Shown: positions 1 to 30,732 of the stretch, piece after piece
Position numbering within the stretch: the first letter of the stretch is position 1
How the letters are laid out: each line of letters begins with the position of its first letter
DNA from: a virus
Length of the DNA: 64,000 nt
Strand: one strand, 5' to 3'
IMG/VR virus record: IMGVR_UViG_3300043177_000268
Span: 59,478 to 123,477 of that record
The notes under the pieces: model-generated
The model's input: only the letters and a program-made list of their open reading frames with translations
Database searches by the model: none
What the model was told of the DNA's origin: nothing
Program-made: the position numbers and the translations under genes

Positions 1-191
1 GCCTGCATATCTGGATTGGTAATGGCTTGATAGGCGGCAGAGATAGTTTTAAACTTTTCTTCTGCTTCTTGGTTTCCGGAATTTCTGTCGGGGTGATGCT
101 GGAATGCCAGCGCTCGATACGCTTTCTTCACCTCCTCCTCTGAGGCCCCCGGTTGAAGACCAAGTGCTGAATAGGCTTCTTGTAGGTTCAT
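1..191 (-). CDS. DnaJ-type J-domain protein (5' part only, runs off window edge)
   Basis: Not in the ORF track. Manual translation from ATG at 191 gives [60 protein letters not shown], a J-domain with the HPD motif. Confidence 0.9.
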
Positions 192-723
192 TTCCACTCA
201 CCAAACTATATGCTAATGCTACTGCGATTGCATCTGTCTGATCATTATTCTTCTCAAACGTATATCCGTGAAGAGAGAATAGATCTACTATGAAATCATA
301 TGTCAACTTCTTGCTGTCCGACCCGTCACCTCGACGCCCGCGCTTCTTCTTGGATGGCAGAAGATTGATTCCCGCTCGCCCCCCCAGTATCTTGCGGACC
401 TCCGAGGGCATTATGATAAATGGATCTTTGCGCGTAGTCTCGTAACATATTTTGTATGCCACACCATGATACAGGGCTAATACTTTGAAAGTTTTCCTAT
501 TTGAACCTTGCCAGCAATCCTCTATCGCTATGATGTCCGGACGATACTTAGCTATAATTGCTTTGACAGCCACCTCAAAAACGAGCAGCCGTTCGGCGTG
601 AGATTTTTGCTTCAAGCGCAGAGCTTCATTATAGGCAATCTTCCCATCACTGTAAACGCACACCCCGGTCGAGGCAGATGATATATCTAATGCTAAGACT
701 GTAGTCATAGCAGATATATACAT
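49..723 (-). CDS. ruvC: RuvC-like Holliday junction resolvase
   Basis: [18 protein letters not shown] and [10 protein letters not shown] acidic catalytic motifs. Start may be 708. The C-terminal tail overlaps the J-domain gene. Confidence 0.85.
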
Positions 724-733
724 CCGCTCGTCG

Positions 734-1489
734 TCAATTTACCCCATATGCAGTTTTTGATACTTCACTAAGCTGCCTATTGAGGATGATATCATCCAAC
801 AATATTGGGCCCAATTCAGATACGGGAATTTGATTTTTATCCTCAAATGCACGACATGCTTCAATTTTAGCTAGAAGGTCTATGGCGTGCGGATGATTTG
901 GGAATCCCTCATATTCTTTTTTTACGGCCCCCGCGTAAGCATCCCAGGAACCAAAAATAAATTCTTTACGCTCACCCATATCCTGAGGATTAAAGCCTGT
1001 CAGATTTACATCTTCAAACATAGACAGGTCATACATGTCCTTATCAGCCCTTCGAATACGCTCTGTCAAATATAATTCTAGAGTGGCAAGACATTTAATT
1101 AGATATGTCATACCAAGAGTAATTCCTCGAATACTGAGGTTGTCGCCAATATAATACGATATATTGAGGCGCACGCGCCCTTCGCTTGCTGGCCTAACAC
1201 CCGAGCCGGAGCAGCGATACATGAATATCAAATTATCCATGTCAGATAAGGTTTTTAAACTAAGGATGTCGGCGGAGAACACTACGGTAGCTTCTATACT
1301 GTACCCCAACATATGGTGATCCATATTTAGAATTGCCACACGATCTTTGTCAAACGAGAAGATAATGCTCTTGTCTGCCACATCTGCCGAAATATTTGAA
1401 TAGCCAAGTGCCTTAAGAAATTTCGTAGCTAGTAGAAATTCCCATTTAGTTATTAACTTAGAAAATGTGTCGCGTAAAAAGGATAACAA
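734..1489 (-). CDS. hypothetical protein
   Basis: Long ORF. Start moved to TTG at 1489 (GGAGG upstream) because the track start lies inside the terminator. Confidence 0.6.
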   Translation of the reverse strand: MLSFLRDTFSKLITKWEFLLATKFLKALGYSNISADVADKSIIFSFDKDRVAILNMDHHMLGYSIEATVVFSADILSLKTLSDMDNLIFMYRCSGSGVRPASEGRVRLNISYYIGDNLSIRGITLGMTYLIKCLATLELYLTERIRRADKDMYDLSMFEDVNLTGFNPQDMGERKEFIFGSWDAYAGAVKKEYEGFPNHPHAIDLLAKIEACRAFEDKNQIPVSELGPILLDDIILNRQLSEVSKTAYGVN

Positions 1490-1498
1490 TTGACCTCC

Positions 1499-1541: not shown

Positions 1542-1555
1542 CGGGTATTAGCTAA

Positions 1556-2230: not shown

Positions 2231-2264
2231 GTTGTTTTCTCCTATTACAATTTTGCTTAATTGC

Positions 2265-2943: not shown

Positions 2944-3567
2944 TTAACCGTCAGATCTCCTAAATCTATTGAGATTTGGGCTATCTTTGAGCGCCGCTAA
3001 CTTTGCCATTCTCTGTGCCGTTAGCGGGTCCGACGCTCCCCCGTCAAGGTCTACCAGCGAGGTGGGGTCAGGCGGCATTAAACCGGCCATGGCTGCGGCG
3101 AACTCCGAAGTCCCGGCGCCGGCCCCCTTGGCGGTCTTAGCGACCGTCATATCGCCTTTGGAGAGGCCGAACTCGCGCTCGGCCTCCGCTCGGAGGGCGA
3201 AGATCTCTTGGCGTCGCTCCTCTTCTGGCAAGCTCTTAAGGTGAGGGTACTCCTCCAACAGCTCGCGCTCAATCTCTTCATCCTGCATTTGGGATCGAGT
3301 TTTTGGTTTTACCCTGGCTGATGGCTGAATGGAGGATGCTAACCCCTGCCCTCTCGGTACAAGGTCATATTTGCCGGCGATTAGAGCAGCTACTTTAACG
3401 AGCGTAGCTTCATCAACATCTGCATCCGCCAGCTTTTCCTTGATTGAAGTAAATTCGGCATTAATTGCTGCGGACATGATCGTCTTGCCGCATGCAGGGC
3501 ATGAGTTGTCCTGAAGTGCCTTGGTAAAGGACGGCGGTATCGGGGTTTGACAGTTATTGCATTTCAT
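2944..3567 (-). CDS. zinc-ribbon hypothetical protein
   Basis: N-terminal CNNC...CPAC. Confidence 0.6.
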   Translation of the reverse strand: MKCNNCQTPIPPSFTKALQDNSCPACGKTIMSAAINAEFTSIKEKLADADVDEATLVKVAALIAGKYDLVPRGQGLASSIQPSARVKPKTRSQMQDEEIERELLEEYPHLKSLPEEERRQEIFALRAEAEREFGLSKGDMTVAKTAKGAGAGTSEFAAAMAGLMPPDPTSLVDLDGGASDPLTAQRMAKLAALKDSPNLNRFRRSDG

Positions 3568-6500
3568 TGTTCACCTGATTTTTATAGTAGGCTTCTAAGT
3601 TGATTAACACCAGAGTTTTATTGCCAGCATATTCATTGACTTTAAACATGCCACGTATAGGCAGGCCCACGCGGAGTATTTTCTTCATTTTCTCATACTG
3701 GTCGGCCCATATTGTAACTTCTACACTTTCGCCGCGCAGATTTTCTATGGTTAATTTACCCATAGTTTTACCCTTATTCTTACCATCTTTTTTGATAAGA
3801 ATCTCTTTAATAGATGTTACTATTCCTTCAGTTGGAAAGTTTATATTATCTACCATAGCCTGCAGCTGAGCGTATGTCTGACCATATCTGCCCTCAATAA
3901 AGAATCCGGGATAGAGAGCCTTGATATCTCCAGAAACATATTCTCCCAGAGTATTCTTTTCTCCCTCCAGCTTTTCGCGCATAGTGAATTCAACGTGAGC
4001 TAATTCATGGCTATTTGGTACAAATGCGCTTAGCTGCTCGGGCGTGAGCTGATATGATTTCTTAATCTTCTTCTCTACCACAACTCTGGTGCGACTCGAT
4101 TTACCCTCCAGATCTCCGCTATAATCATCAGATAGCTCCTCATTCTGGAAATCGCCATCATCAGCGATATCCACCTCAACCTCTTCCTCAACCTCTACGA
4201 CAATCTCTTCTCCGTGCTTTTTAGCATACGCCTGCAGTTCTTTACGAATATCAAGGAAGTTGTCATGGATATATTTCCTTGACAATCCAAGGCTGTCGAA
4301 TGCTCCAGCTAGGGCAAGGGCTACGATGACCGACTTGTTTACGACATTTCCTGGTGTACGATGTAGGAAGTCCTGAAATGAAGCATACGGCTGTCCGGCA
4401 ATAATTGCCTTGAGCGCCCTCTCGCCCACGCCTTTTATCGCACCAAGGCCGGTAACAATTGTGCCCTTATCCTTCATAGAATAATATTCTTTGGATAAGT
4501 TAATGTCACATGACTGTATATTAATCTTAAATAGCTTGGCATCTTTTTTGAGAGCGTCGATAATCTCGCTGCGCTCACGCTTATTGCCCCTAGTTTGCGT
4601 ATTTAGATTTGCGCATATAAATGGGCCAGGAGCATGCGCTTTGTAATACGCCGTCTGATAGGAGATCATGCTATACATAATTGCGTGGCTAAGATTGAAT
4701 CCATATCCGGCGAACGGCAGGACGACCTTATTCCATATTTCCTGAGCCTCGTCCTTTGATAGTTCAGAGAACGCCATGGAGTCTATTATGAATTTCTTCT
4801 CCAGTTCCGCAGCAAGATGAGCTCCTTTCTCCTTGAGCTTAGTAAGCTTACGCAGACCGTCTGCTTCGGATAGATCCCATCCGGCTACCAACTGTGCAAG
4901 CTTGAGAAGATCCTCTTCATAAACCGGAATGCCGTGAGTGTGCTTAAATACCGGTTCCAAACATGGGTGGATATACTTTACTGGACTGCGTCCAAACCTA
5001 CGATTTATGAATTCAATTCTATCTTGCTTACGGACAGATGGTCGTCCGAGAGCGCTGATGGCGGCAATGTCCTCAACTGACTTCGGCAGCATAGCCTTGC
5101 AGAGCGGCGTCATACTGCCATTTAACTGAAACATCCCGGTAGTATGCCCCAGATGCATTAGCTTGTAGGCCTTTGCATCGCCATCCTGCAAACTTTCAGG
5201 CTCTGGTAGGGTCATGCCGATTGACTTTGCTAGAGATATAGTCTCATCAATAACATCCAGGGTATCTAACCCAAGAAAGTCCATCTTGACCAGACCAATC
5301 TCCTCGCACTGATCTTTATCATACTGAACAGAGATGGTTCCATCGCTATCTCTGCGCAGCGGAGCGCACTCAGGCAGCGGCGTATCGGAAATCACTATGC
5401 CGGCAGCATGGGTAGCGAACCCGCGCGGAACGCCGATTAACTCATTAGCGTACTCTAGTATAACCGGGTACTCCTGCACGAACTTGCGTAACTTCTCCGA
5501 TGCCTCCATAGCCTTAGCCATAGTGTCGATTTTAATTCGCTTGTCGCCCTCCATTATTAGGTCTGGAATACTGGCTGTAACGTCGTTTGCAATTTTGAAG
5601 GCAGTACTCTTATCTCCTCCAATAACCAATGACCGAGCCACGTCCTTGATGACTAGCTTTGGTGTTAATCGGAGAATGTTAGAAATGAATGCAACCTTGT
5701 CTTCTCCATACTTGTCTTTGCAATATTGAATAACACGCTCTCTGCCGCTAGGAGCAAAGTCGCAATCGATATCTGGAAGTGACTTCTTCTCCTTATTCTG
5801 GAAACGCTCGAAAAGCAATCCATATTTAATAGGATCTGCCATATGAATACCGAGCAGGAATGCTACAAGGGAGCCCCCCACGCTTCCGCGGCCGGGACCG
5901 ACAGTAATCCCGTTATTTTTGGCCCATTGTATGTAATCGGCGACGATTAGCATATACGAGCTGAAGTTGCGCATCTCAAGAATATCAAGCTCTTTCTTTA
6001 CGCGCTCCAGGTATTCCTGCTTCTTTTCTTTAGAAAAGGCTTCTGTGTATTTGTCAAATGCCTTTTTAACACGGAAGCGTAGATAGGCGGCGTCTTTCTT
6101 GAGCGCAGCGATTGCAGGCTTATCTTGCGACCATGCGCTGAACTCAGCTGCATCCCCCTCGTCTTTCCAGGGATACGCCGGCAGTCTGTGACCCTTCGGA
6201 GCCATGTAGTCCGGATATTCACAACTATCGGCTATTTTCACAGTATTATCCACCATTGTGCCCGCAGTGGTACTATCGAATTTTTTCGCAAAGTAGCTGA
6301 CTAACTGATCTCGGCCCTTCAAGTAGAATTCCGGGCACGGCTTAATCGCCCCGTACTTGGTACCGCCGCATTGATAACATTCCTTCTTGGAATCCGCAGG
6401 ATACTCCCCGGTTCCAGCGCAAATTAGGCATGGCTGATATGTAGCGTAACGGTGACGCGTTGGGTCCTCAAGGGATTTCTTGGAACCGATTGCCAATACC

Positions 6501-7180
6501 ATATCGTGATATTTCTCATGCTTACTCGTAAGATAGTGCGAGTCGCATGTGGCAATCATTTGTATTTTTAGCTCATCTGCCAAGAATTTAAGTTGTTCAT
6601 TTAGGAATGATTGATTAAACTCTCCGCGCTGCAACTCATGCGGCTGTAGTTCAATATAAAACTTGTCGCCAAAAAGATCTCTGAAGATTGACGCCAAATC
6701 CTTTGCTTTGCGAATATTTTTTTCAAATATGGCGGAGGCGAATGGGGAACCGCCGCATGCAGAGTTTACAAATAATCCTTCCCTGTGTTTCTTTAGGATA
6801 CTAAAGTCTACGCGCGGAAATTGACGCCCCATCACTGTCACGGAATTACGAAATCCAGCAGCATTTATCTGCAATAGGTTGCGATAACCTTCCTCATTTT
6901 TGGCTAATAGCACAAGATGCCGTCTCTTAGACTTGGGATCATTTAGATCTTCACAGTAATATATTTCACTGCCTGGAATGAACTTAATCTGCCGCCCCTG
7001 CTCTTTATACTTCTTGTATTCCTTATATCCCTCGTGTATACCAGCCAGGACACCGTGATCTGTAATTGCTATACCGGGCTGCCCTAACTCTGCCACTCTC
7101 TTAAAAAGATCTGGTATGCAAATGATTGCATCCATGTGAGAGTGATATGTGTGCGAGTGTAGGTTTACGAAATTGTCCAT
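3554..7180 (-). CDS. dnaE: DNA polymerase III alpha subunit
   Basis: PHP domain (LHSH, ITDHG, TCDSH), GPGRGSVGGS, SLPDIDCDF, GLVKMDFLGL, FNLSHA, C-terminal OB fold. Confidence 0.97.
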   Translation of the reverse strand: MDNFVNLHSHTYHSHMDAIICIPDLFKRVAELGQPGIAITDHGVLAGIHEGYKEYKKYKEQGRQIKFIPGSEIYYCEDLNDPKSKRRHLVLLAKNEEGYRNLLQINAAGFRNSVTVMGRQFPRVDFSILKKHREGLFVNSACGGSPFASAIFEKNIRKAKDLASIFRDLFGDKFYIELQPHELQRGEFNQSFLNEQLKFLADELKIQMIATCDSHYLTSKHEKYHDMVLAIGSKKSLEDPTRHRYATYQPCLICAGTGEYPADSKKECYQCGGTKYGAIKPCPEFYLKGRDQLVSYFAKKFDSTTAGTMVDNTVKIADSCEYPDYMAPKGHRLPAYPWKDEGDAAEFSAWSQDKPAIAALKKDAAYLRFRVKKAFDKYTEAFSKEKKQEYLERVKKELDILEMRNFSSYMLIVADYIQWAKNNGITVGPGRGSVGGSLVAFLLGIHMADPIKYGLLFERFQNKEKKSLPDIDCDFAPSGRERVIQYCKDKYGEDKVAFISNILRLTPKLVIKDVARSLVIGGDKSTAFKIANDVTASIPDLIMEGDKRIKIDTMAKAMEASEKLRKFVQEYPVILEYANELIGVPRGFATHAAGIVISDTPLPECAPLRRDSDGTISVQYDKDQCEEIGLVKMDFLGLDTLDVIDETISLAKSIGMTLPEPESLQDGDAKAYKLMHLGHTTGMFQLNGSMTPLCKAMLPKSVEDIAAISALGRPSVRKQDRIEFINRRFGRSPVKYIHPCLEPVFKHTHGIPVYEEDLLKLAQLVAGWDLSEADGLRKLTKLKEKGAHLAAELEKKFIIDSMAFSELSKDEAQEIWNKVVLPFAGYGFNLSHAIMYSMISYQTAYYKAHAPGPFICANLNTQTRGNKRERSEIIDALKKDAKLFKINIQSCDINLSKEYYSMKDKGTIVTGLGAIKGVGERALKAIIAGQPYASFQDFLHRTPGNVVNKSVIVALALAGAFDSLGLSRKYIHDNFLDIRKELQAYAKKHGEEIVVEVEEEVEVDIADDGDFQNEELSDDYSGDLEGKSSRTRVVVEKKIKKSYQLTPEQLSAFVPNSHELAHVEFTMREKLEGEKNTLGEYVSGDIKALYPGFFIEGRYGQTYAQLQAMVDNINFPTEGIVTSIKEILIKKDGKNKGKTMGKLTIENLRGESVEVTIWADQYEKMKKILRVGLPIRGMFKVNEYAGNKTLVLINLEAYYKNQVNNEMQ

Positions 7181-7797: not shown

Positions 7798-9009
7798 CTA
7801 CTTAACCTTTGCTTGTGAAATGAGAAAATCTATCGCTCTGTTTCTCTCATGGAAAGACATCAAAAGTTCATACTGGCCGGAATTTCTTAGATGTGTCAAA
7901 ACCTCGTCCGGCGTTCTTCCAACCTTCTGCGCCTCGGCCTCTACTACGCCGAACGCCTCGTCTGCGGACATGTGAATATTTTCGCGCTCACGATAAATGG
8001 CATCAAGGAATATATTAGACAGTATATTTCTACGCGCCTGCTGTTTGAGTTGCTGTACGAGCTGCTCCGAGTCTTTAGGAAGCGCTTTTAAACCAATGCG
8101 CCTGCAGATCACCTCAGTCTCGGCATCTATCCAGCGGTCCGGAATCTCCAGAGGGTTAGCCTCGATTAGCTGTGTTAGAACTTCATTATAAAGCTTGGCC
8201 TTTAGCGGTACGGAATGATCATTGGTTTTCTTAGAGATTAAATCTCTCTTCATATCCTCCAACGAAGAGAATAGAGCTGATTTAGCAAATTCGTCATCTA
8301 GTGCTGGTAATGCTCGTGCGAATACGGCGGATAAGCGAACCCGAATAACCCTACCATCCTTAAGCGCTGCGTCAAACTCATCACCTGCTTTCTTATCAAG
8401 AAAGACAGTATTGTCAACAAACGTGTCCGGTGTATCTGATAATGCTACTGAGGCGTGACTATTGCTGCCATCGAGGAATTCAACGGAAACCTGATCGCTC
8501 GCCTCAGCAGGCCTTTCTACAAAATCAAGCTGCGCCATAGAAGCGCGTATCTTCTCAAGATCAGCCGCCACCAGACTGTCTAGTGTTGGCAAAGCCTCTG
8601 AAATGTGCAGTTCGGGCGGGATCACCACCTGTAACTCGGGCTCAAAATCAGCAATTACTGCGAACTCAAAGGAGCCATCGAGATTAAACTCTCCGACATA
8701 TTTTTTTCTACGCGAAGCCCTATGAGCCTCAATGAGACTTGGCGAGCCGACTATTTTAAGTTGTTTCTCGCGAATTGATCCCGAGACCTCTTCATGAACA
8801 ATTCTCGCGGAGCACTCTGCTAAAATAATATCCTTGAATTGATTACGAATTACTGCCGGCGGGGCAGTGCCCTTCCTAAAACCCCTTGCCTCAACACGCG
8901 GGGCGATTTCTTTAATGAAGGAGTTGATTGATTCGTCTACTTGAGATTGTGTAACCGAGAAAAACAGTTGCTTCTCTATGCCACTCTTATCTTCTATCCT
9001 TACTAACAT
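7798..9009 (-). CDS. tig: trigger factor (ribosome-associated chaperone)
   Basis: Ribosome-binding signature GFRKGTAP, VERPAEASDQVSVEF, LPALDDEFAK, helical C-domain. Start moved to ATG 9009 (AGGAGA RBS). Confidence 0.88.
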   Translation of the reverse strand: MLVRIEDKSGIEKQLFFSVTQSQVDESINSFIKEIAPRVEARGFRKGTAPPAVIRNQFKDIILAECSARIVHEEVSGSIREKQLKIVGSPSLIEAHRASRRKKYVGEFNLDGSFEFAVIADFEPELQVVIPPELHISEALPTLDSLVAADLEKIRASMAQLDFVERPAEASDQVSVEFLDGSNSHASVALSDTPDTFVDNTVFLDKKAGDEFDAALKDGRVIRVRLSAVFARALPALDDEFAKSALFSSLEDMKRDLISKKTNDHSVPLKAKLYNEVLTQLIEANPLEIPDRWIDAETEVICRRIGLKALPKDSEQLVQQLKQQARRNILSNIFLDAIYRERENIHMSADEAFGVVEAEAQKVGRTPDEVLTHLRNSGQYELLMSFHERNRAIDFLISQAKVK

Positions 9010-9016: not shown

Positions 9017-12000
9017 CTATCTCCTATATTGGTTTGGATCAGTAAGTAGCTGTGACTGCTCCTGCTTAATTGCTGACTCCCAACGTTCGGCCTGTTCATC
9101 AAACATTGTATCTATATCCTTAACCTCCTCTCTCTTGGCCCGCTCAGAGGGCGGTCGTGTATTGCGTACTCGATATTTATCCAATTCGAGAAGAAGATTA
9201 CTGAAGTCATCGCCTGCCGATAGGCGACGATTTAGGTCCATCAGAAGCAATTGCAGATGCTGTGGACTGACTGCGTCACCTAGATCCTTTACATTTACAA
9301 GGCTATCGAGCGCCATAGACACCCTGCGTACAGTATCGGCCTTATCCTTGTACTGAGGTGACTGGGACATTCGACTAATAAAGTCCCGTACCTTATCTCG
9401 CGATACGGTCAGCGACTCTTTGATATAATCAAACTCTTCTTCTGCACCGGCCGCCTCGCGCTCTGCCATGTCTTTTGCTTTATTGATAGCCTTAAGTAGT
9501 TGCGAGCGATACACTTTTGATGTGGAAAGTAGGTCGCGTAGTTGATTAAGTAATACGGGATTTCTCCCAGCTGCAGACATCTCTTTTGAGAGGGATGCTT
9601 GTGCCTGAACTACAGCCTGCAGGTACTTCATTAGTTCTTCGGCCTTGCTATTGAGGCGCGCAACGCCATCTTGCTGTTGGGGCACAAGCCTGTCTGCCAG
9701 CTTGCCGCCAGAGAAAATAGTTTTCGATAGGGATGTAATGAGCGCCTCACCCTCCTCCTGTTTTGGGGCGGGCAATGCAGGGTCTTTGCCAGTATTCTGC
9801 TCTCTACGTATCGTGCTTCTTAGGGCTGGGGCAACTTTGCCCAAAATCATCTCTACAGTTGTTCCGATACTTTTATCTGTAAGATACGATGGTGGTAGTT
9901 TCTGTAGTTCCTTCTCCACTTTCTGCAGAGTATCTGTTGGCACACCGCTTTTAGCCAAGTCATCCAAAATGCTCTTGATAATCGGATTTTCATCTGACTT
10001 ATCGGTGATCTCGCTGCTACGTTCAGCATCAAGCTTCACAGAGGAGAAATCAACCTCGACTTGTGGCGGAATGTAGGTTGTAGATACGAATGGACTCTGT
10101 TTGAATGGCACGTCGCCGCCCTTCGTATAGGGCACTATATCCTTTTCATAGGCGGGAGAGATGGATAGCACTTCCTTCCTGCGGTCAAGCATGGCCATGC
10201 GTATAGCGCCTACAGGATTTCCTAACAGGTTGTTCCCTAGACGCCTGACGGTATTTACTAGCGAGCTGTATACAGACGGCTCTACTATTTCGCCTTTACC
10301 CTCGGCCAATCGCTGGGCATTTAGCTTGTCTATTTGCTCACGAGAGAGTCTTTCCCCCGGCTGTATATTTAATCGAGTTTTACGCACAATGCCCGACGCG
10401 TGCGATGTCGTGTCTGGGACGGGATCGGCAAAGGCTTTTGTAATCTGAGCTAATTCCTCCCAGGACCTTGGTCTGGGGTTTGCTGGATCCGACCAATTTT
10501 CGTCAGTTACCGAAGCGTCAGACTTATTCTTCTCAAAAAACTCACGTACGGCTGATAGAGCTGGGGCGGCGCGCGCGGCGCGAAATCCATAATCAGCACC
10601 TATAATCATTGCTCCAAGAGAATTATTTAGTAATCTAGAGGCATCCTCGCCCTTTCCCTGTTTATCTGCAAAAGCGCGGTATAGCTGACTGAGCTTGCCG
10701 TATATGGTGTTTGACGCCAGCACTGCACCGCCACGACCGCCCTTTAGAGACATGAAGTCGGTATTTATGAATCTCTCAATCTCCTCTCTGCGCTCAGAAG
10801 TTTTAGCGGAGAGCTTCTTAGATAACACTTCCGTTACATATTCTTCAATTATACCTGGAAGCACCTTGTTGCATACGTAGACCGATACGTGCTCCCATGT
10901 CACATCCCTCGTGACCCCCTGCTTTTGTAATTCATAATATTTTGACATGATATCTGCCAGTATTTTATTTATTAGGTCGCCAGTGCGGCGACCTGCATCC
11001 TGCCCCGCCCCACTGTATGTCAGGGCTATATCGGCCTGCTTAGCTTTTATACCGGTGTCATCGATACCCAGATATTTCAATAGTGGTTCAAGCTTGGATG
11101 CGGCAACCCCGGAGCCAAGGCTCTCGTCCCGCAACTTAGAGATGGCGTCAGTATTGATTACGCTGCTTTTATAGTCCTCTTCATTGGCAGCATAGCGCTC
11201 AGCGAATGCTTGCGACGACAGTGCTGCAGATAGGTGGGGGAGGAACCCGTCCGTAAGGGTGCCAAGCTTATCGTTTATGCTTTTTATTTCTTTTTCTGAG
11301 GTAAGGGGCTGTGATGCTGCATCTACAAGTTTAATTGCCGACGGCGCATTGTACACGTAGCGCATTGTGAGCGGGAGGAGGGGCATAGCATATAGTTTGA
11401 ATATATTTGAAAGAATTAATTGAAGCGAAGTTTTGTCAGCAAACAGAGGGCCGTACTTGTTGAGTATCTGCGTGCGCGCTGCCTCAAAAGCATACATCAT
11501 CTCTTCATTGAATGCCCGAATATTGTCCAGGTCCTTGGTCTTAAACGATGTACCGGCTATGTCCCCACCGGGCGTGCCAGAACCATATGTGCGCTTCGCT
11601 TCATTCGAGGCCTCTAAGAATTGATTGCTTTCTGAAGTTATTGCTTTATTTACCTCGCCCTTGGCGGCTACTATGAATTCGTCCAAAATGTCGGTCGCTA
11701 CGGCAGCGTTTGGCTTACTCATCAGTTTTGCAATGGCTTGGGTCAACTGTGCCGAGGACTGTGCCTGCATATGTGCGCGTGCACTCTCCATCGACTCCAT
11801 AGCTCCATCAATAACTTCGAAAGCCACATCTGCATATGTTCTATTACTTAGAAATTTCGTACGAATATCGCCCATGTTAAGATTGGTCGACGCCACGCTA
11901 TACTTCTCACCATTCCACATGGTCATATTCAAATCTAGGCTAGCTAATTTCTGCTCTTTAGACAATAGGTTTGTGATGCTACGCACACCCTTAACATCAG

Positions 12001-12919
12001 TAATATTTGGGTTTATATATATATTTGGTGTTAAAACCTCACCGGAGTTGGATATAACGCGCGTGTTTACATCCGCTATATTTGCCCAGCAGTAATCATG
12101 TAGGGCCTTTTGTAGCTCCTTATAGTGTCGCATGTAAGCTGCAGAGAGGACGGCGAGCTGAGCTGGTAGATTTGCTAGGCTTTTCTGGTGCCCTGGCGGA
12201 GGTCCGGCCGGAAACATAACCTCAAAATCCATGCTACCCTGCATAAAGTCAGCAAGTACGGCCTGATTATATTCAATGAGATATTTGCCGTGCGCGATGC
12301 GCATGGCTTCAATCAAATCATTGAGGCGGGGAGATCTGTACTGAAAGCCCTTCTTGGGCGCGGCGCTTTTGACTAGATTATTTGGAAGAACTGTGAGGAT
12401 TGGATTATTTATTATCTGCTGTTTGATAACGCTAATGAAGGCCATCCCCAATGCGAATGATAAGGCATTCCTGAGCGATTCATTATTATAAGATAATTCT
12501 CTAACAATAGACCTAATCTCCTCTGTGGGGTACTTTGAATCTAGAAGGTGTTGACGCAGCGCTACCAGGCTATCTTTATCGAAAGGTAGGACTTCCGGAA
12601 TAAAGCCTGTAAGATGATTTGTGGGCAGTGCGCCGCGCAAAACGGGCAATTCCGGCCGCACATCTTTAAGATGCGCAAGTAAGAATTGGGCAACCTTCTT
12701 GTTTAAGAGTTTTTGAAATGGATCCTCGACCTCGCCGCCAGATTTCGTAATATTCTCAAAAGCAGCAAACAGATCTTCTACCGTAGCAGGGATGAGCTTG
12801 AACTGAGGGCGGGTTGGCGCCCTGGCATCAGCAGCTAGTGCTTTAAGAGCGTACCTTATATCGCCCGTTGCTTCAAATTTATCTGTATTCTTTTGAGATA
12901 GTATTTTCCAAAGAGTCAT
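9017..12919 (-). CDS. large hypothetical protein (1300 aa), possible virion protein
   Basis: Uninterrupted 3.9 kb ORF, mostly helical, no motif recognised. Confidence 0.6.
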   Translation of the reverse strand: MTLWKILSQKNTDKFEATGDIRYALKALAADARAPTRPQFKLIPATVEDLFAAFENITKSGGEVEDPFQKLLNKKVAQFLLAHLKDVRPELPVLRGALPTNHLTGFIPEVLPFDKDSLVALRQHLLDSKYPTEEIRSIVRELSYNNESLRNALSFALGMAFISVIKQQIINNPILTVLPNNLVKSAAPKKGFQYRSPRLNDLIEAMRIAHGKYLIEYNQAVLADFMQGSMDFEVMFPAGPPPGHQKSLANLPAQLAVLSAAYMRHYKELQKALHDYCWANIADVNTRVISNSGEVLTPNIYINPNITDVKGVRSITNLLSKEQKLASLDLNMTMWNGEKYSVASTNLNMGDIRTKFLSNRTYADVAFEVIDGAMESMESARAHMQAQSSAQLTQAIAKLMSKPNAAVATDILDEFIVAAKGEVNKAITSESNQFLEASNEAKRTYGSGTPGGDIAGTSFKTKDLDNIRAFNEEMMYAFEAARTQILNKYGPLFADKTSLQLILSNIFKLYAMPLLPLTMRYVYNAPSAIKLVDAASQPLTSEKEIKSINDKLGTLTDGFLPHLSAALSSQAFAERYAANEEDYKSSVINTDAISKLRDESLGSGVAASKLEPLLKYLGIDDTGIKAKQADIALTYSGAGQDAGRRTGDLINKILADIMSKYYELQKQGVTRDVTWEHVSVYVCNKVLPGIIEEYVTEVLSKKLSAKTSERREEIERFINTDFMSLKGGRGGAVLASNTIYGKLSQLYRAFADKQGKGEDASRLLNNSLGAMIIGADYGFRAARAAPALSAVREFFEKNKSDASVTDENWSDPANPRPRSWEELAQITKAFADPVPDTTSHASGIVRKTRLNIQPGERLSREQIDKLNAQRLAEGKGEIVEPSVYSSLVNTVRRLGNNLLGNPVGAIRMAMLDRRKEVLSISPAYEKDIVPYTKGGDVPFKQSPFVSTTYIPPQVEVDFSSVKLDAERSSEITDKSDENPIIKSILDDLAKSGVPTDTLQKVEKELQKLPPSYLTDKSIGTTVEMILGKVAPALRSTIRREQNTGKDPALPAPKQEEGEALITSLSKTIFSGGKLADRLVPQQQDGVARLNSKAEELMKYLQAVVQAQASLSKEMSAAGRNPVLLNQLRDLLSTSKVYRSQLLKAINKAKDMAEREAAGAEEEFDYIKESLTVSRDKVRDFISRMSQSPQYKDKADTVRRVSMALDSLVNVKDLGDAVSPQHLQLLLMDLNRRLSAGDDFSNLLLELDKYRVRNTRPPSERAKREEVKDIDTMFDEQAERWESAIKQEQSQLLTDPNQYRR

Positions 12920-13737
12920 TTATCCTTTCCTAAGGCTTCCAAAAGAGCTTTATTCTTAGACAGTGCCTGCAGTCGTGCTTTAATTGCCGATGTGGAAATG
13001 CCTATTTCTTCTGAAATTTCGAATAAAGTTCTGCCCTCCAAGAAAAGGTTAACTATTTTTTTGGTAGAGGGTTCAAGCCCATCAATTACGCTATTTATTG
13101 ATAGGTTACTGACCACATCATGTTCTGAGTCCGAAGCTCTAAAGCCCAGTATCAGAACATCTTCGGGAGAGGTGCATTCTCGAATTGTAGTGTGCCCTCC
13201 ATCTTTGAGTGGAATTTCTTCATCAGCGGAAAGCAGCGCCATGGGAATGGGATATGTGCGCCATTTACCTTCAGCAGTGCTTGTTCGGCAGTAGGTGCAG
13301 TATTTGGGCATCCCCCTGGTTTCATCAAAAACAAATGTCTGATCGCAGTGTGGGCATCGAGTTTTACAGAAGCGGTAGGTGCCATGAGTGGCCGTCCGAC
13401 ACTTCTCTGTGGCATACTTATATAGATTGACCATGCGATTCTTTACATGATTCTGTAAAAATGTCAGCATATTAGCTGACTTCTCTATCGAATAATCTGG
13501 AATTGCGGCTAACGCAATGACGGTGAGTTCCTGAACTAAATCATCAATACCGTATGATGGGATGGACATCTGACGCGCCTGATATCTGATAAAATCAGAT
13601 ATATATCGGTAGACCTGGTCTATCCCAACTCCCGTACGACTATCTATATATAGAACAACACCACTCTTCATGGGAATGTGGCCCGCAATCCACCTTCGAC
13701 CACCGTCGGTGCCATATCTAATCTCGTATTGAGTCAT
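12916..13737 (-). CDS. sigma-70/ECF-like RNA polymerase sigma factor with zinc-ribbon insert
   Basis: Region-2-like DDLVQE...LTFLQNHVKNRMVNLYK; region-4 HTH LFLEGRTLFEISEEIGISTSAIKARL. Start ATG 13737 overlaps the upstream TGA. Confidence 0.8.
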   Translation of the reverse strand: MTQYEIRYGTDGGRRWIAGHIPMKSGVVLYIDSRTGVGIDQVYRYISDFIRYQARQMSIPSYGIDDLVQELTVIALAAIPDYSIEKSANMLTFLQNHVKNRMVNLYKYATEKCRTATHGTYRFCKTRCPHCDQTFVFDETRGMPKYCTYCRTSTAEGKWRTYPIPMALLSADEEIPLKDGGHTTIRECTSPEDVLILGFRASDSEHDVVSNLSINSVIDGLEPSTKKIVNLFLEGRTLFEISEEIGISTSAIKARLQALSKNKALLEALGKDK

Positions 13738-15623: not shown

Positions 15624-15630
15624 GCCTACC

Positions 15631-22904: not shown

Positions 22905-23396
22905 CTATTGGGATGCCAGAAAATCTTCAAAAGCATACGCTAGGCGCTCATCCAGATCCCTATCTGAGATACCGCTGCGGTAGTTGAGGAGGTGAGCTAT
23001 TTCATGCGCAAGAACGCCATCCCGTTTCCGGATAGAGTCCATGACAACGTATACTCTACGATCGCCCGGATAATACCTTCCTAGCACATCCTTATTTCTT
23101 GTTAGCCCAAATGGCAACGAACCATCATTCATCACAGTATGCGTTACTATAGCAACATCTATTCTGTCTAGGACGGCAGGCCTGTGCAAGTTTAAGAAGC
23201 GCGCATGATTCTCCGGTACTGCATTCACGGTGCGTTGTACAAATTGCAAATCGCCTTTCGTCAGAGGCTGATATGCACAAATGCGTATATCGGTCTGAGT
23301 GACAAGCCTATATTTAAAAGTGCAGTCGATCTCTACCTGCGCGGTAGCGGTTTGTGCAAAAAGCAGTGCGAAAAGGATAGCTATGAACCTTATCAT
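22905..23396 (-). CDS. secreted zincin-like metallopeptidase
   Basis: Signal peptide MIRFIAILFALLFAQTATA; HEXXH motif LAHEIAHLL. Confidence 0.65.
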   Translation of the reverse strand: MIRFIAILFALLFAQTATAQVEIDCTFKYRLVTQTDIRICAYQPLTKGDLQFVQRTVNAVPENHARFLNLHRPAVLDRIDVAIVTHTVMNDGSLPFGLTRNKDVLGRYYPGDRRVYVVMDSIRKRDGVLAHEIAHLLNYRSGISDRDLDERLAYAFEDFLASQ

Positions 23397-23980
23397 TTCC
23401 TTCTTCTCTTCCTAATTTTAGTCAGCGGTGTTGTTGAAGATAGTATCTCGTCGACTATTCCGTACTCTAGCGCCTCCTGGGCTGTAAGGTACTTATCTGA
23501 TTTAAGATCCATCTCGAGCTGCTTTACTGGTTTGCCTGTATATTTTGAATATAGCTTGTACATTGTATCCTGTAGAGCTTTCGTGTGCTTTACTTCGATG
23601 GATAAGTCCGATACCGTTCCGTACACTTCGGTATTGACCTGGTGCATCATAATCGATGTATTTTCCGCTATTGAGCGCCGATCTCCTGCCGCAAGCAGGA
23701 GCACCCCGGCGCTCATCACCTTACCAATGCCTATTGTATGCAGGGGGCATTTTACCAATCTCATTGCATCGTACATGGCATTCATCTCATACATATCTCC
23801 GCCGTAAGTGGAGATATATATAGTGATGTGTTCTGTGGGGCTTTGAGCCGACAGCAGTACTAGATATTTGATGAATTGCTGAGCTTTACGCTCATCAATC
23901 TCTCCTGTGAGCATTATTATTCGCTGCTCCTCTATACATGTTACTTCTATATCATCCGTGTATTCCTCTGTATCTGCCAT
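23393..23980 (-). CDS. clpP: ATP-dependent Clp protease proteolytic subunit
   Basis: IYISTYGG; catalytic Ser (VMSAG), His (IMMHQ), Asp (DKYLTAQEALEYGIVD). Confidence 0.93.
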   Translation of the reverse strand: MADTEEYTDDIEVTCIEEQRIIMLTGEIDERKAQQFIKYLVLLSAQSPTEHITIYISTYGGDMYEMNAMYDAMRLVKCPLHTIGIGKVMSAGVLLLAAGDRRSIAENTSIMMHQVNTEVYGTVSDLSIEVKHTKALQDTMYKLYSKYTGKPVKQLEMDLKSDKYLTAQEALEYGIVDEILSSTTPLTKIRKRRRK

Positions 23981-24065: not shown

Positions 24066-24470
24066 TCATTGTCCTTGCGACTCACCCTGAGGTGCGCGGC
24101 GAGGGGTATATGGACGGAATTTCACTTTCTTAGAATCGAAGTCCATCATCATCTCTAGCTTTGCTTGGCGCTTGCGGGCATTTTTAATCGCCTTCATATG
24201 CCTCTCGCGGCGCTTCTGGCTCTTGCTCTTAAAATGCTCTCTTTTCTTTATCTCAGACAAAACACCGGAGGCTTCGACTACACGCTTGAAGCGCCGGATA
24301 AGACGCTCGTTGTCCTCACCAGGTTCCGCCTTGACAGTCCTAAAAGTGAAGGAATTCAGCAAATCTTGTGAATTATCTACCCGTGGATCAAATTTGCCTA
24401 GTGGGCGATGCTGTGGGGGCCTGCGATTCTGATATGGGCGGTTAGACTCCCAATTATTAAACTTTCTCAT
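24066..24470 (-). CDS. rpsU: ribosomal protein bS21 with N- and C-terminal extensions
   Basis: VKAEPGEDNERLIRRFKR...GVLSEIKKREHFKSKSQKRR core. Confidence 0.85.
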   Translation of the reverse strand: MRKFNNWESNRPYQNRRPPQHRPLGKFDPRVDNSQDLLNSFTFRTVKAEPGEDNERLIRRFKRVVEASGVLSEIKKREHFKSKSQKRRERHMKAIKNARKRQAKLEMMMDFDSKKVKFRPYTPRRAPQGESQGQ

Positions 24471-26399: not shown

Positions 26400-26408
26400 G
26401 TTCTTTTC

Positions 26409-26846
26409 TCAGCCTTGCTGGGCATCTACAACCTTACCCGTGGCATCAATGGTAAGTGAAATTCTACCCGGCTTGTAATCTTGCGTTACAGTGGCGCCGA
26501 TCGGCGCTACACGGAACTCCGCTATTTTCTTGTCATTCACTAACTTTGTTAGCAACTCAACTGCATCATCTTTCATTTTATCCATTAAACCATCCAGCGT
26601 ATCTCTCATTGAGAAATCAGGTGTGGCAACAACATGCTTACTAGGATCAAATTGTATTTCTTTCATATCGCTTTTAGCCTCATCTTTAATTATCTTGGAG
26701 TCCCAATCTGCGGGATTTTGTGAATCTATTCTTCTGAATACTTTACCTGACATGGAATTCTCCTCAGAAAGTAGGGGTGGGGGCGTGGGGATAGACGACG
26801 GCTTTTTAAGTCGCGCCCACAACCCCTTTAATGATTTCAGCAGCAT
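26409..26846 (-). CDS. protein with C-terminal peptidase inhibitor I78/potato-inhibitor-like domain
   Basis: FRVAPIGATVTQDYKPGRISLTIDATGKVVDAQQG matches the vTxDyrpxRlxxxvD...G pattern. Confidence 0.7.
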   Translation of the reverse strand: MLLKSLKGLWARLKKPSSIPTPPPLLSEENSMSGKVFRRIDSQNPADWDSKIIKDEAKSDMKEIQFDPSKHVVATPDFSMRDTLDGLMDKMKDDAVELLTKLVNDKKIAEFRVAPIGATVTQDYKPGRISLTIDATGKVVDAQQG

Positions 26847-27912
26847 CTATAATCTCCTGCCATGTTGTTTTTGGGCTAATCGAAACCCTTATTGAGCCAG
26901 AGAGACGTGGCGACAATTCCCCATACATAGCTGCCAGAGTATAGCTGTGCGTCGACATACCTGATTCACAGGCGCTCATGCCAGATACCATCACGCCAGC
27001 CACTGATAGCTGTTCTACAAATAATTGTACATCCTTAACTTTTGGAAAATATAGATTTGTAGTATTGGGCAGTCTCTTGGCTCCAGCCCCATTTACCAGA
27101 GCAACATCTCCCAATATTCGCTCAAGCTCTGCAATTTGCAATTGCATTTGCGCCGAAATGTGCGGAGATAAATTACTCATCTCTGTCACTGCCAATCCAA
27201 GACTGTATATAGCTTCGGTATTTATCGTGCCAGGTCGCAAACCCCACTGCTGCGCCCCTCCCAACATTAGCGGATAAAGTTGAGGAAAGATATTGTCCTT
27301 GAAGGCCAGTGCGCCAACACCCTTCATGGCGTGCATTTTATGACCAGAAATAACAATTGTACTAGCGCAATTCCGCTGTATTTCAGATAGGCTCCCGCCT
27401 TTTGCATAGCATTGCGATGCGTCAATGTGAAGCTTTATTCCTTTCGCCCGGCAAAGCTCGGCAATGGAACAGTCCGGATCAAGATGAATTCCGGTTTCAT
27501 TATTGGCATACATACAGGCCAGTACAATATTGGGGGCGTGCTTGCATCCGGATATTTTTTTAGCCAGCGTATCGTAGCATAGGTAACCTTCCGGAGTCAC
27601 CGGCAGGATCTCATCCGCGTATTTAAGGACTGACTTGTGCTCGACTGCTGAAGACCAGATGGTGTGCCCTGACTTTCTGTATGAGGACAGCGCCATGGCA
27701 TTTGCTTCTGTAGCGCCGCTCGTAAACAATACATTGTTTGTTCTGGTACCCAGAAGTGTCGCAACAATCTCGCGGCTCCCATCAATAATCTTCTTAGAAG
27801 CGGCGCCTGCCGCATGTTGCGAGTCGGCATTTCCTAGAAATATTTCATCGGATAGCTGCTCGTATACATGCGGCAGGACATATGTGGCCGAATTATGATC
27901 TAAGTATATCAT
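26806..27912 (-). CDS. iscS: cysteine desulfurase (IscS/NifS family)
   Basis: MIYLDHNSAT, FTSGATEAN, ANNETG, PLP lysine SGHK, catalytic Cys in SACESG. Confidence 0.92.
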   Translation of the reverse strand: MIYLDHNSATYVLPHVYEQLSDEIFLGNADSQHAAGAASKKIIDGSREIVATLLGTRTNNVLFTSGATEANAMALSSYRKSGHTIWSSAVEHKSVLKYADEILPVTPEGYLCYDTLAKKISGCKHAPNIVLACMYANNETGIHLDPDCSIAELCRAKGIKLHIDASQCYAKGGSLSEIQRNCASTIVISGHKMHAMKGVGALAFKDNIFPQLYPLMLGGAQQWGLRPGTINTEAIYSLGLAVTEMSNLSPHISAQMQLQIAELERILGDVALVNGAGAKRLPNTTNLYFPKVKDVQLFVEQLSVAGVMVSGMSACESGMSTHSYTLAAMYGELSPRLSGSIRVSISPKTTWQEIIDAAEIIKGVVGAT

Positions 27913-29546
27913 CCCATCATCATGCCAGGATGGGCGGTAGATGATTTATTCTCTTCACTCTCGTCTATGGCTACCACCGCCTCTGTAGTAAGAATTAGCG
28001 AACTCACACTGGCTGCATTTTGAAGCGCAACCCTTGTTACCTGAGCCGGGTCGATAATCCCCGCCTGCAGCATATCTCTGTATTCATGAGTAGCTGCATC
28101 GTATCCCCAAGTGCCAGTCAATTCAGATCTGACCTTGTTTAGGACTACCTCCTGCGACTTGCCCGCATTGGCAACAATCTGCATCAATGGAGCAGAACAC
28201 GCCTTGAGTATGATCTTAACTCCAATATCCTCTTCTGGGTCGCCTGTAGTGAAATTTTCGAGTGTTGCTGCTGCACGCACTAGAGCTACGCCTCCGCCCG
28301 GCACTATGCCCTCTTGTATCGCCGCCTTTGTAGCGGCAAGCGCATCCTCAAATCTATCCTTTCTTTCTTTCATTTCGATATCTGTAGCTGCGCCAACCTC
28401 GATAACGGCAATGCCGCCAATCAGCTTGGCCAAACGCTTGTTTAGCACATCGCGTGCGTGAAAGTCGGTTATGCGAGAGAGTTCTTGGCGGATTTGAGCT
28501 GCGCGTTGCTGAATAGCGTCCTCGGCACCGCTCTTTCCCACCACCACGGTCTTCTCCCTTGTAATAATAATGCGCTCAGCCGTTCCTAGATCGGAGAGCT
28601 GCGTTTCGATTAGGCGAGATTCAATACCGAGCTCTTTGATTTGAGCACCAGTGAGAATCGCCAAATCCTCCATCATTTCCTTTTTTGCGTCTCCGAAACC
28701 AGGGGCTTTTACTGCAGCGCAGACAAGAGAGTTGCGCAGAGAATTGACTACCATAGTACCGAGAACTTCACCCTCAATAGAGTCTGCTATCACGACCAGC
28801 GGTACCTTGTGCTTGCTGCAGTGCTGGAATAGTGGAAGCATCTCCTCCATATCGGCTGCGCTGGTAAGCTTGCTATTTACCAGCCAGATTAACGGCTTTT
28901 CAAAAACGACCCTTTGGCGCTCCTTATCATTACAGAAGTGTGGTGAAAGGAATCCGCGGTCAAATTCAAAACCTTCGGCAGCACGAACTGTAGACTCAAA
29001 ACCCTTGCCTTCCTCCAGAGTGATTACTCCATCCTTACCCACAACTTCCATAGCCGAGGCTATCATCTTGCCGATCGAGGTGTCGCCGTTGGCGGAAATG
29101 GTTGCTACTTGCTCCACCTCTTTAATATCCTCAACTTGCTTACTTAGTTTTTTAATCTCAGCCACAACCGCCTCTGCGGCCTTGTCAATGCCGCGCTTGA
29201 TTGGCATTGGGTCGTGACGAGCCACTATGAGGCGCAGACCTTCAGCCACTATAGCGTCAGCCAAAACCGTTGCTGTGGTAGTCCCGTCACCGGCTAAATC
29301 CGCAGTACGCGACGCCACCTCTTTCACCATTTGGGCGCCCATATTGGCAAATGGATCTTTAACTACAATCTCTCTAGCCACCGACACGCCATCCTTGGTG
29401 ATATGTGGAGGTAATCCACGGCGCTGCAGGACTACGTTTCTGCCACGTGGGCCCAGCGTACAGGCCACTGCCTTTGCTAAGGTCCTTACTCCGCTAGCTA
29501 TTTTATCTCTGGAATTTTGACCAAATTCAATTATTTTAGAATCCAT
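27909..29546 (-). CDS. groEL: group I chaperonin GroEL
   Basis: TLGPRGRNV, GDGTTTATVLA, KAPGFGD, GIVPGGG, GM-rich tail. Confidence 0.97.
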   Translation of the reverse strand: MDSKIIEFGQNSRDKIASGVRTLAKAVACTLGPRGRNVVLQRRGLPPHITKDGVSVAREIVVKDPFANMGAQMVKEVASRTADLAGDGTTTATVLADAIVAEGLRLIVARHDPMPIKRGIDKAAEAVVAEIKKLSKQVEDIKEVEQVATISANGDTSIGKMIASAMEVVGKDGVITLEEGKGFESTVRAAEGFEFDRGFLSPHFCNDKERQRVVFEKPLIWLVNSKLTSAADMEEMLPLFQHCSKHKVPLVVIADSIEGEVLGTMVVNSLRNSLVCAAVKAPGFGDAKKEMMEDLAILTGAQIKELGIESRLIETQLSDLGTAERIIITREKTVVVGKSGAEDAIQQRAAQIRQELSRITDFHARDVLNKRLAKLIGGIAVIEVGAATDIEMKERKDRFEDALAATKAAIQEGIVPGGGVALVRAAATLENFTTGDPEEDIGVKIILKACSAPLMQIVANAGKSQEVVLNKVRSELTGTWGYDAATHEYRDMLQAGIIDPAQVTRVALQNAASVSSLILTTEAVVAIDESEENKSSTAHPGMMMG

Positions 29547-29562
29547 ACTGCTTTTCTCCTAA

Positions 29563-29994
29563 TTATATGTCGTTAAGTTTCTTGCCTAATTTTGACAGGT
29601 ATTTGTTATAAAGCCCCTCGTATATGTGCTGATACGGCGACGCTAGTATTTGTACATCGTCTTCCGCAGTAAGCGTAGATCCAACCCGCATACGAATTTT
29701 TGCACTATCCTCTTCACGCGAAAGAAGCATTTCAATAGATGAAAGTCCGTGATGGCGTTGCGCGTATGCGGCTAAACCATCTAATGTATCTTGGGAAAAC
29801 TCCAGAATGGCAGGAGCATTGTCTTCATCCGAAAGAAGGACGATGGTGGCATAGTGAATCTTTTCTGCGCGATCCGGCGCAGAAACTAGACCGTCTTTGC
29901 TAGCTGGAATTGCTATAGGAGGAAATGGGAATTTAACCCCATGAACCCGCTCAGATGTCAGTAGTTGATTTAGGATCCGAATCTTCATTCTCAT
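29563..29994 (-). CDS. hypothetical protein
   Basis: ORF directly upstream of groEL; not recognisably GroES. Confidence 0.55.
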   Translation of the reverse strand: MRMKIRILNQLLTSERVHGVKFPFPPIAIPASKDGLVSAPDRAEKIHYATIVLLSDEDNAPAILEFSQDTLDGLAAYAQRHHGLSSIEMLLSREEDSAKIRMRVGSTLTAEDDVQILASPYQHIYEGLYNKYLSKLGKKLNDI

Positions 29995-30292
29995 TTACCT
30001 GCGGTTCTGCTGATGCTGTGGGGAAGTCTTGCACATCGTCATATATACCCACCTCGCGCGTCGAACCTTTGAGATGCGGCGGTGCTTCGACTGATTTGAG
30101 TATATTAAATACAGATGAGAATGTGATATTGTTTCTGTGTTCGGCGGGGACTGATTTCTTAGCCTTTTTTAGATGCCGCCTTACGCGATCTCGTAACATT
30201 TTTCTATTTCCAGACATTAGAAGATCCTCATATGTTTGCGAAGCTCTGCCTTGCAGCACTTGGCAAAAGTGAGATTTGAGCTGCACAGGCAT
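29951..30292 (-). CDS. hypothetical protein
   Basis: Basic N-terminal and acidic C-terminal parts; true start is probably MSGNRK. Confidence 0.5.
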   Translation of the reverse strand: MPVQLKSHFCQVLQGRASQTYEDLLMSGNRKMLRDRVRRHLKKAKKSVPAEHRNNITFSSVFNILKSVEAPPHLKGSTREVGIYDDVQDFPTASAEPQVNENEDSDPKSTTDI

Positions 30293-30732
30293 AGCCCGTC
30301 ATCTTTTATGTTGGACAGCTGATTTCTAAACATACTCTGACCAATTGTATGCTGATGCTCGTGCTGCGCGACGATGGCGGGAAGGCCGGTAAGCCTTATA
30401 CCTTGAGGATTCAAGTCGTCTACTATAACTGCAGTATTGTATCTTAGGGTGCGTATGGACTGACCGGGATACGACAGACACCCCTCTGCAGTAAAGATAA
30501 GCGGCTCAGACAGGTGGGTGATGCGCGCATTTATGAAGTTATAACTGTGCTTTGCAGAAATGCGTATTATGAATGCTTGCTTTACTACACCAATCTGGCA
30601 TGCTGCCAGACCAATTCCCTGTACCTCCGACATTCGAAGCTCATTTTCGAGCCTAGTCAGAAGTTCAGCGGCTTCCCCCGGCAAGACCGGAGTGGACGGA
30701 ATTAGGAGAGTATCCTCATCGGTAACGATCAT
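30217..30732 (-). CDS. def: peptide deformylase with C-terminal SEC-C-like motif
   Basis: GIGLAACQIG, EGCLS, QHEHQH; tail CLCSSNLTFAKCC. Start moved to ATG 30732 (ATGA overlap). Confidence 0.88.
   Translation of the reverse strand: MIVTDEDTLLIPSTPVLPGEAAELLTRLENELRMSEVQGIGLAACQIGVVKQAFIIRISAKHSYNFINARITHLSEPLIFTAEGCLSYPGQSIRTLRYNTAVIVDDLNPQGIRLTGLPAIVAQHEHQHTIGQSMFRNQLSNIKDDGLCLCSSNLTFAKCCKAELRKHMRIF

Follow-up and report, generated by a model that had tools for sequence, protein, structure and literature searches.

Trigger factor (TF) is known in bacteria from structures such as those of Escherichia coli (1w26, 2vrh) and Thermotoga maritima (3gty), and no published description of a phage TF was found in a full-text literature search or in the two main comparative papers on large phages (PMC7162821, PMC7824862). 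Genomes of huge phages above 200 kb encode N-terminally extended ribosomal protein bS21, peptide deformylase (PDF), initiation factors and tRNAs, as described by Al-Shayeb et al. 2020 (PMC7162821), a paper whose text has zero mentions of trigger factor, chaperone, GroEL or ClpP. ClpP and DnaJ-domain co-chaperones occur sporadically in jumbo phages (Iyer et al. 2021, PMC7824862), and that paper makes no mention of trigger factor, deformylase or S21. Here we describe a 64,000-nt stretch of DNA, referred to as the window, that corresponds to bases 59478-123477 of a 142,142-bp IMG/VR virus record (G000) and encodes TF together with DnaJ, ClpP, bS21, GroEL and PDF. The extended bS21, the PDF, the initiation factors and the tRNAs are common to this phage and to the huge phages of PMC7162821; here they are accompanied by chaperones and a protease, and by a TF-DnaJ pair that runs through the whole lineage. 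The virus-encoded TF is new to the searched literature, and it is a core, anciently inherited component of a widespread huge-phage lineage in which it is paired with a full DnaJ. The six genes are as follows, in window coordinates unless stated otherwise.

7798..9009, minus strand: TF, 403 aa, with Trigger_N and Trigger_C domains
1..197, minus strand: N-terminal 65 codons of DnaJ (codons at 3-197; J domain with HPD), the gene continuing past the window start; whole gene, 338 aa, class A, minus strand, at G000:C1:58658-59674, with three Pfam domains above cut-off
23393..23980, minus strand: ClpP-family serine protease, 195 aa (PF00574)
24066..24470, minus strand: ribosomal protein bS21, 134 aa (PF01165, 43.1 bits, cut-off 27, domain at residues 46-98)
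27909..29546, minus strand: GroEL chaperonin, 545 aa (PF00118, 222 bits)
30217..30732, minus strand: PDF, 171 aa (PF01327, 67 bits)

An earlier reading made from the letters of the window, here called the sequence-only reading, had named these six genes and described them as lying outside their bacterial operons. Both statements held: all six are intact, lie on the minus strand and score above the Pfam gathering cut-offs, and they are spread over about 31 kb with the bacterial tig-clpP-clpX, groES-groEL and dnaK-dnaJ contexts absent. The TF gene itself is present, scoring 61.3 bits for Trigger_N (cut-off 22.2) and 55.1 bits for Trigger_C (cut-off 22.7), and its start is most likely the ATG at 9009, which has an AGGAGA ribosome-binding site ahead of it; the earlier TTG start at 9102 is probably wrong. 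TF residues 43-50 read GFRKGTAP, the ribosome-docking loop, with the same numbering as in E. coli TF. The GFRKG motif is thereby intact, as had been claimed, with G43-F-R-K-G47 and P50 read directly. All five residues G43, F44, R45, K46 and G47 were invariant in 10 close relatives, and among 41 diverse phage TFs G43 was invariant while F44, R45, G47 and P50 were at least 90% conserved.

The head of the protein, at the position of the peptidyl-prolyl isomerase domain, differed from that of bacterial TFs. FKBP_C (PF00254) gave no match in the window TF and its nine closest relatives, in contrast to bacterial TFs and the distant phage TF P0041, which do match. The head is about 25 aa shorter than in bacteria, with a gap opposite E. 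coli 'tidvtfpeey' in the pairwise alignment, and an AlphaFold model with a pLDDT of 88 kept a small beta-rich head at residues 158-235. When the model was searched with Foldseek, the best matches were the full-length TF structures 3gty and 1w26 (E about 1e-19, 420-440 aligned columns), and a comparison of the N-domain with 1oms gave a TM-score of 0.82-0.83 and a root-mean-square deviation of 2.5-2.9. Judged by its primary structure, the prolyl-isomerase head of this TF is shrunken and unrecognisable. P0041, which has 429 aa, still has a recognisable FKBP_C, and the head has therefore been secondarily shrunk in the subclade of the window TF. The head is dispensable for chaperone function in E. 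coli TF. Compared to bacterial TF, the phage TF thus shares the three-part architecture, the order of the parts, the loop numbering and the predicted fold, but it is only 19-25% identical, lacks the FKBP_C match and has a shorter head. The gene is also found between a ~1300-aa open reading frame (ORF) and PolIII-alpha and not beside clpP-clpX. The PHROGs family phrog_26774, annotated as 'unknown function', matched the N-terminal half of TF (E = 6.5e-20), so PHROGs already contains an unnamed TF-like family.

Among 5.8 billion proteins searched there were ten TF relatives at 49-100% identity, all of 402-407 aa and all without FKBP_C; below them there was a gap, followed by bacterial TFs at 22-25% identity. 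The closest available relatives had 64-69% amino-acid identity. When 1.84 billion cluster representatives were searched with a profile, 35 clusters had E <= 1e-30, with scores that graded down to the bacterial bulk at about 100-115 bits. Four genomic neighbourhoods were retrieved through three of the TFs, P0004 (67% identical), P0038 and P0041 (two contigs), and all four were huge-phage contigs (249 kb, 229 kb and two copies of a ~55-kb contig) in a common gene order: SbcD/SbcC, a CHB_HEX protein, a PD-(D/E)XK nuclease, a sigma factor, a ~1250-aa ORF, TF, a ~72-aa ORF, a ~110-aa ORF, PolIII-alpha, RuvC, DnaJ and RecA. An IMG/VR relative (L006) had an identical ORF order around TF, and a fifth TF, P0052, was on a 5.6-kb contig too short to show gene order. 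In a tree of 111 TFs, three phage groups with support of 99-100 were placed outside a 59-row bacterial clade. Constraining all 49 phage TFs to one clade gave a p-AU of 0.853 and a log-likelihood 40 units better than the free search; the 49 phage TFs can thus form a single clade, with groups that were defined after the tree had been seen and a bacterial sample biased towards best matches.

These comparisons showed that TF and DnaJ are vertically inherited, with a place in the replication/recombination module of 10 or more related huge-phage contigs, and that TF is an old, phage-lineage gene. With 22-25% identity to bacterial TFs and synteny across deeply diverged phages, it is not a recent pickup from a host. 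The suggestion that TF is unusual in phages was also borne out: among 50,697 GenBank phage records it was present only in 11 short 'Bacteriophage sp.' contigs, which are human-faecal and marked UNVERIFIED. The one of these that was examined (MT835703.1, 1-9251) carried TF, then ClpP and, after it, two ORFs of 436 and 775 aa; the layout is that of bacterial tig-clpP-clpX-lon, and the contig is therefore probably a bacterial fragment mislabelled as phage.

The record that holds the window was given a CheckV completeness of 38%, which for 142 kb implies a genome of about 370 kb, and a 367,953-bp contig in the databases carries identical TF, GroEL and ClpP proteins. The minus strand holds 159 of the 173 ORFs of the record. 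The large terminase subunit has GpA_ATPase and Terminase_6N signatures with a LAGLIDADG intein inserted (L004:1770-4682), a head-protease-like domain and an M23 endolysin-like domain are encoded elsewhere in the record, and PolIII-alpha, SbcCD, a sigma factor, RecA, RuvC and a primase are also encoded. Neither a major capsid protein nor a portal protein could be recognised by sequence in the record, and most of its other proteins had no match; the PolIII-alpha of the nearest deposited phage was only ~30% identical. The source is an uncultured huge phage and the contig is not cellular. The sequence-only reading had named a cellular contig as what would overturn it; the IMG/VR assignment, the intein-bearing terminase, the head-protease-like domain and the single-strand coding all showed the contig to be viral.

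IMG/VR was then searched with two narrower TF alignments. Four of the retrieved records (G012-G015), two proviruses and two short fragments of 12 and 20 kb, were set aside, none of them having DnaJ and their TFs being found among the bacterial rows; this left 11 large TF-bearing records besides G000. DnaJ was found in 11 of 11, at 8-12 kb from TF in 10 of them, the match in G009 being weak and containing a stop codon. The other genes were found less often: ClpP in six, bS21 in six, PDF in five and GroEL in two. All six genes were present in G000, G001 and G005, five in G010 and four in G008. Since most of the records are fragments rated 7-62% complete, these counts are lower bounds.

The J protein that the sequence-only reading had listed as a J-domain gene is present, but the window holds only its first 65 codons, and the whole gene encodes a complete class-A DnaJ. 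The Pfam scores were 71 bits for DnaJ, 38 bits for DnaJ_CXXCXGXG and 118 bits for DnaJ_C, and the translation shows HPD, a G/F region, four CxxCxGxG motifs and the C-terminal domain. Neither HSP70 (DnaK) nor an AAA_2 protein (ClpX/ClpA-type unfoldase) was found in the 12 records, among them genomes with completeness ratings of 98% and 62%. Cpn10 (GroES) gave no match at E <= 1 in G000 or G001, and among the 12 records only G011, rated 49% complete, had one; no GroEL was found in that fragment despite the Cpn10.

G011:C1:187969-188241: Cpn10 (GroES) of the relative G011

DnaJ is complete yet comes without DnaK, and ClpP comes without an unfoldase, which implies that both use host partners. The use of host Hsp70 was predicted likewise for jumbo-phage J-proteins by Iyer et al. 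2021 (PMC7824862).

PDF, GroEL and bS21 were shown to be members of a second conserved gene block, with the order IscA, (IscA), PDF, ~140-aa ORF, GroEL, IscS-like, GMP-reductase-like (GuaC), NUDIX and bS21. The block was kept on a 422-kb ENA contig (L037) and on a 36.5-kb Logan contig, where the GroELs were only 57% identical. The window GroEL aligned with solved GroELs over residues 4-525 (E = 1e-166), and G86, D87, G88, T89 and T90 (GDGTT) as well as E400 and D401 were invariant in 20 relatives; an Asp equivalent to D398 is among them. Its identity to the G001 copy was 85%, compared to 64% for TF. In a tree, the window GroEL fell among unnamed metagenomic sequences, in a clade of 27 rows apart from named bacterial GroELs. 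Within the best 120 matches, identity to named bacterial GroELs was at most ~55%, which together with the position in a conserved phage gene block showed that GroEL, too, is not a recent host pickup. Its syntenic presence in a sizeable subgroup is comparatively old. An attempt to assign a host through GroEL failed, the named bacterial sequences among the best 120 matches being scattered over many phyla at 52-55% identity. GroEL was present in 234 GenBank phage records, and the nearest deposited phage GroEL was ~50% identical to that of the window.

The PDF start is probably the ATG at 30732, and the motifs GIGLAACQ, EGCLS and HEHQH are intact and conserved in five orthologues. Its best solved relatives are the phage PDFs of Vp16 (5mtc, a Vibrio phage) and S-SSM7 (3uwa, a cyanophage), with which it shares the compact core and the three catalytic motifs. 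Unlike 5mtc and 3uwa, the window PDF runs on for ~35 more residues beyond HEHQH (the HExxH motif) and ends in CLC-x8-CC, a SecA-type, SEC-C-like CxC-x8-CC. The SEC-C domain of SecA (PF02810) has the same Cys spacing, CxC-x8-C[CH]. With a Pfam cut-off of 20.4 bits, the SEC-C score was 15.8 bits for the window PDF and 19.0 for G001, and the orthologues of L037 (32.0) and G005 (37.2) were above the cut-off. The four tail cysteines aligned across the orthologues, as CLC..CC in the window, CPC..CC in L037 and CWCGSG..CH in G005. The tail was found on the PDFs of four phage lineages, and the G010 PDF was without it. The known carriers are SecA, YecA and YchJ, whereas the SEC-C-like motif is here joined to a deformylase, and the window protein has a degraded consensus at the GSG and K[FY]K residues. 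A literature search for both terms together found no published description of a deformylase-SEC-C fusion. For the metal-binding domain of E. coli SecA, taken by itself, co-sedimentation with ribosomes and cross-linking to uL23 have been shown (PMC6620043), and the domain binds iron in vivo (bioRxiv 10.1101/613315). Taken together, the TF loop and the PDF tail suggest by homology that two phage proteins may address uL23 at the exit port.

ClpP scored 159 bits for PF00574 (cut-off 20.2) and matched solved ClpP structures with best E-values of about 9e-32 to 1e-32. In an alignment to 6pbu, the Ser (..MSAG..), His (..MHQ..) and Asp (..KSDKY..) fell in the triad columns. The N-terminus is short and acidic (MADTEEYTDDIEVTCIEEQ), with ~17 mostly acidic residues before the RIIMLTG core, where canonical ClpPs carry the axial-pore loop; judging from this region, gating or the choice of partner may be changed. 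The phage clade of ClpP was 61-100% identical and confined to the closer relatives of the window, other ClpPs being at most 51% identical. There was no ClpP after bS21 in two distant relatives, the 422-kb ENA contig and the 36.5-kb Logan contig, and this together with the tight clade makes ClpP the youngest addition at its position. A role as prohead protease was considered and rejected, with ClpP found among the bS21 and NUDIX genes, a strong match to true ClpP and a separate head-protease-like domain.

Basic extensions lengthen the bS21 protein by ~45 aa N-terminally and by ~30 aa C-terminally, compared to a total of about 70 aa for bacterial bS21. It was 73% identical to the G001 orthologue over all 134 aa, extensions included, and its PDB matches were bS21 chains. 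Two initiation factors are encoded just to the right of the window.

G000:C1:124297-124491 and 130622-130873 (L005): IF-1 and IF-3 genes

In the relative G010, the IF-3 gene was found directly beside PDF. Six tRNA genes were found at L005 9923-17669 (G000:C1:132923-140669), four for tRNA-Ser, one for tRNA-Tyr and one for tRNA-Cys; that four of the six are serine isoacceptors with different anticodons is notable.

The neighbours of TF and of the second block that bear on the interpretation are the following.

3554-7180, minus strand: PolIII-alpha, 1208 aa, intein-free; at least one intein in relatives (1533-1625 aa)
9017..12919, minus strand: 1300-aa ORF, family unassigned, ending 7 nt ahead of the TF start
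13734-15671: PD-(D/E)XK nuclease, intein-interrupted
26806..27912, minus strand: class-V aminotransferase, IscS/NifS-like cysteine desulfurase (PF00266, 128 bits), directly downstream of GroEL
29563..29994, minus strand: 143-aa ORF, family unassigned, 16 nt upstream of GroEL in the bacterial groES position
30729..31506, minus strand: two A-type (IscA-like) iron/Fe-S carrier genes (PF01521, 48 and 34 bits), directly upstream of PDF

The last codons of the 1300-aa ORF contain the TF ribosome-binding site, which suggests coupled translation. Every relative examined had a counterpart of 1219-1305 aa directly upstream of TF, and the ORF gave no match among Pfam, PHROGs or PDB sequences. It comes after a sigma-factor gene. 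The 143-aa ORF had counterparts in the same place in G001 (59% identical) and L037 (31%). As a candidate co-chaperonin it gave no Pfam or PHROG family and no Cpn10 signal, and nothing came out of an atlas search beyond hypothetical proteins of viruses and, for a model of low confidence, weak structural neighbours resembling PCNA. An AlphaFold model from a 3-sequence alignment had a pLDDT of 49 and was unusable, and a predicted complex with the GroEL apical domain scored 0.00, which argues neither for nor against binding. The IscS-like gene kept its place in G001, in L037 and on the Logan contig, and the IscA-IscA-PDF order recurred in G001 and the Logan contig. The IscA carriers and the IscS-like enzyme may supply metal to an iron-dependent PDF and its Cys4 tail.

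The reading that we prefer, with a probability of roughly 60%, is that these are functional auxiliary genes of a huge-phage lineage, providing phage-made parts for the host machinery of protein start, trimming, folding and degradation. On this model, bS21, IF-1 and IF-3 would act at initiation, and the phage TF would use its conserved GFRKGxxP loop to dock on host uL23 and would shield nascent phage chains as an ATP-independent holdase, a role proposed because its isomerase head has degenerated. The phage PDF would strip the formyl group, and its SecA-type metal-binding tail, in place of the usual C-terminal helix, would keep it close to the exit port. The phage DnaJ would then pass clients on to host DnaK, the phage GroEL would fold released clients with host GroES or without a co-chaperonin, and the phage ClpP would pair with a host unfoldase. 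The net effect would be extra or phage-tuned capacity during the burst of phage protein synthesis.

Several observations weigh against this reading. GroEL was found in only three of the 12 TF-bearing records, G000 included, and the GroEL of G005 grouped apart from the clade of the window GroEL; a gene missing from a fragmentary record is weak evidence of absence. The SEC-C motif of the window PDF is itself below the Pfam cut-off, as given above. The non-canonical axial-loop region of ClpP makes pairing with a host unfoldase uncertain. In a quick tree, the ClpPs of three TF groups were found in different clades, and the 'set' was therefore partly assembled piecemeal. The sequence-only reading had joined the six genes into one pipeline, and this was not borne out: TF and DnaJ alone were found throughout the large related fragments, GroEL was seen in the three records and ClpP was apparently polyphyletic. 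The six genes are a loosely associated complement and not one operon. The further point that bS21, PDF and GroEL were already known individually in phages was correct, and the same applies to ClpP and J-proteins.

A more aggressive version, in which TF and the PDF tail target uL23 and displace host TF, the signal recognition particle (SRP) and SecA, so that ribosomes are re-equipped and host folding and secretion are starved, appears unlikely. Such an exit-port takeover, which the sequence-only reading had suggested, is consistent with the GFRKGxxP loop being invariant in the 10 close TF relatives and nearly so in the 41 diverse phage TFs, and with a SEC-C tail on PDF in four phage lineages given that the SecA metal-binding domain binds near uL23; phage-encoded bS21, IF-1 and IF-3 also fit ribosome customisation. 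However, nothing that was observed supports competition or selectivity, the G010 PDF has no tail and the genes are dispersed. TF is in excess over ribosomes in E. coli, and with host TF normally exceeding ribosomes, displacement would need high expression or a higher affinity. It is equally doubtful that both ends of the ribosome are re-equipped, with bS21, IF-1 and IF-3 on the 30S subunit and a holdase-only TF and tailed PDF at uL23 on the 50S subunit. If this were true, ribosomes in infected cells would be phage-specialised, with host TF, SRP and SecA excluded.

Phage lambda replication requires DnaJ/DnaK, and with this precedent the proteins could instead work away from the ribosome as assembly or replication chaperones. 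TF would then serve the ~1300-aa ORF, PolIII-alpha or the virion, DnaJ would remodel the replisome, and ClpP and GroEL would act in virion maturation. The location of TF and DnaJ in the replication/recombination module, the TF ribosome-binding site inside the end of the 1300-aa ORF and the best structural match of TF, 3gty, whose entry title describes T. maritima TF as an assembly chaperone in complex with a ribosomal protein, all point in this direction. Off-ribosome work does not readily account for so strictly conserved a ribosome-docking loop, though, and ClpP adjoins bS21 and NUDIX, away from the head genes, with a separate head-protease-like domain elsewhere. We consider this explanation improbable. 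That the contig is cellular or chimeric, or that the genes are recent unexpressed host passengers, was rejected: the six gene families are all usual housekeeping families of bacteria and the short GenBank 'phage' TF contigs were bacterial in the one case checked, but the intein-bearing terminase, the coding on one strand with mostly unmatched proteins, TF identities of at most 25% to bacterial TFs without bacterial operon contexts, and the gene order shared in 55-422-kb contigs from many samples leave this with a very small probability.

The apparent PDF-SEC-C fusion is a natural experiment on the recruitment of factors to the ribosome exit port, and both TF and PDF are small and soluble and thus amenable to study in E. 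coli. In E. coli, TF and DnaK/DnaJ are two overlapping folding routes for new proteins. With one component of either route supplied by a phage, co-translational folding may be what limits the making of very large phage proteomes.

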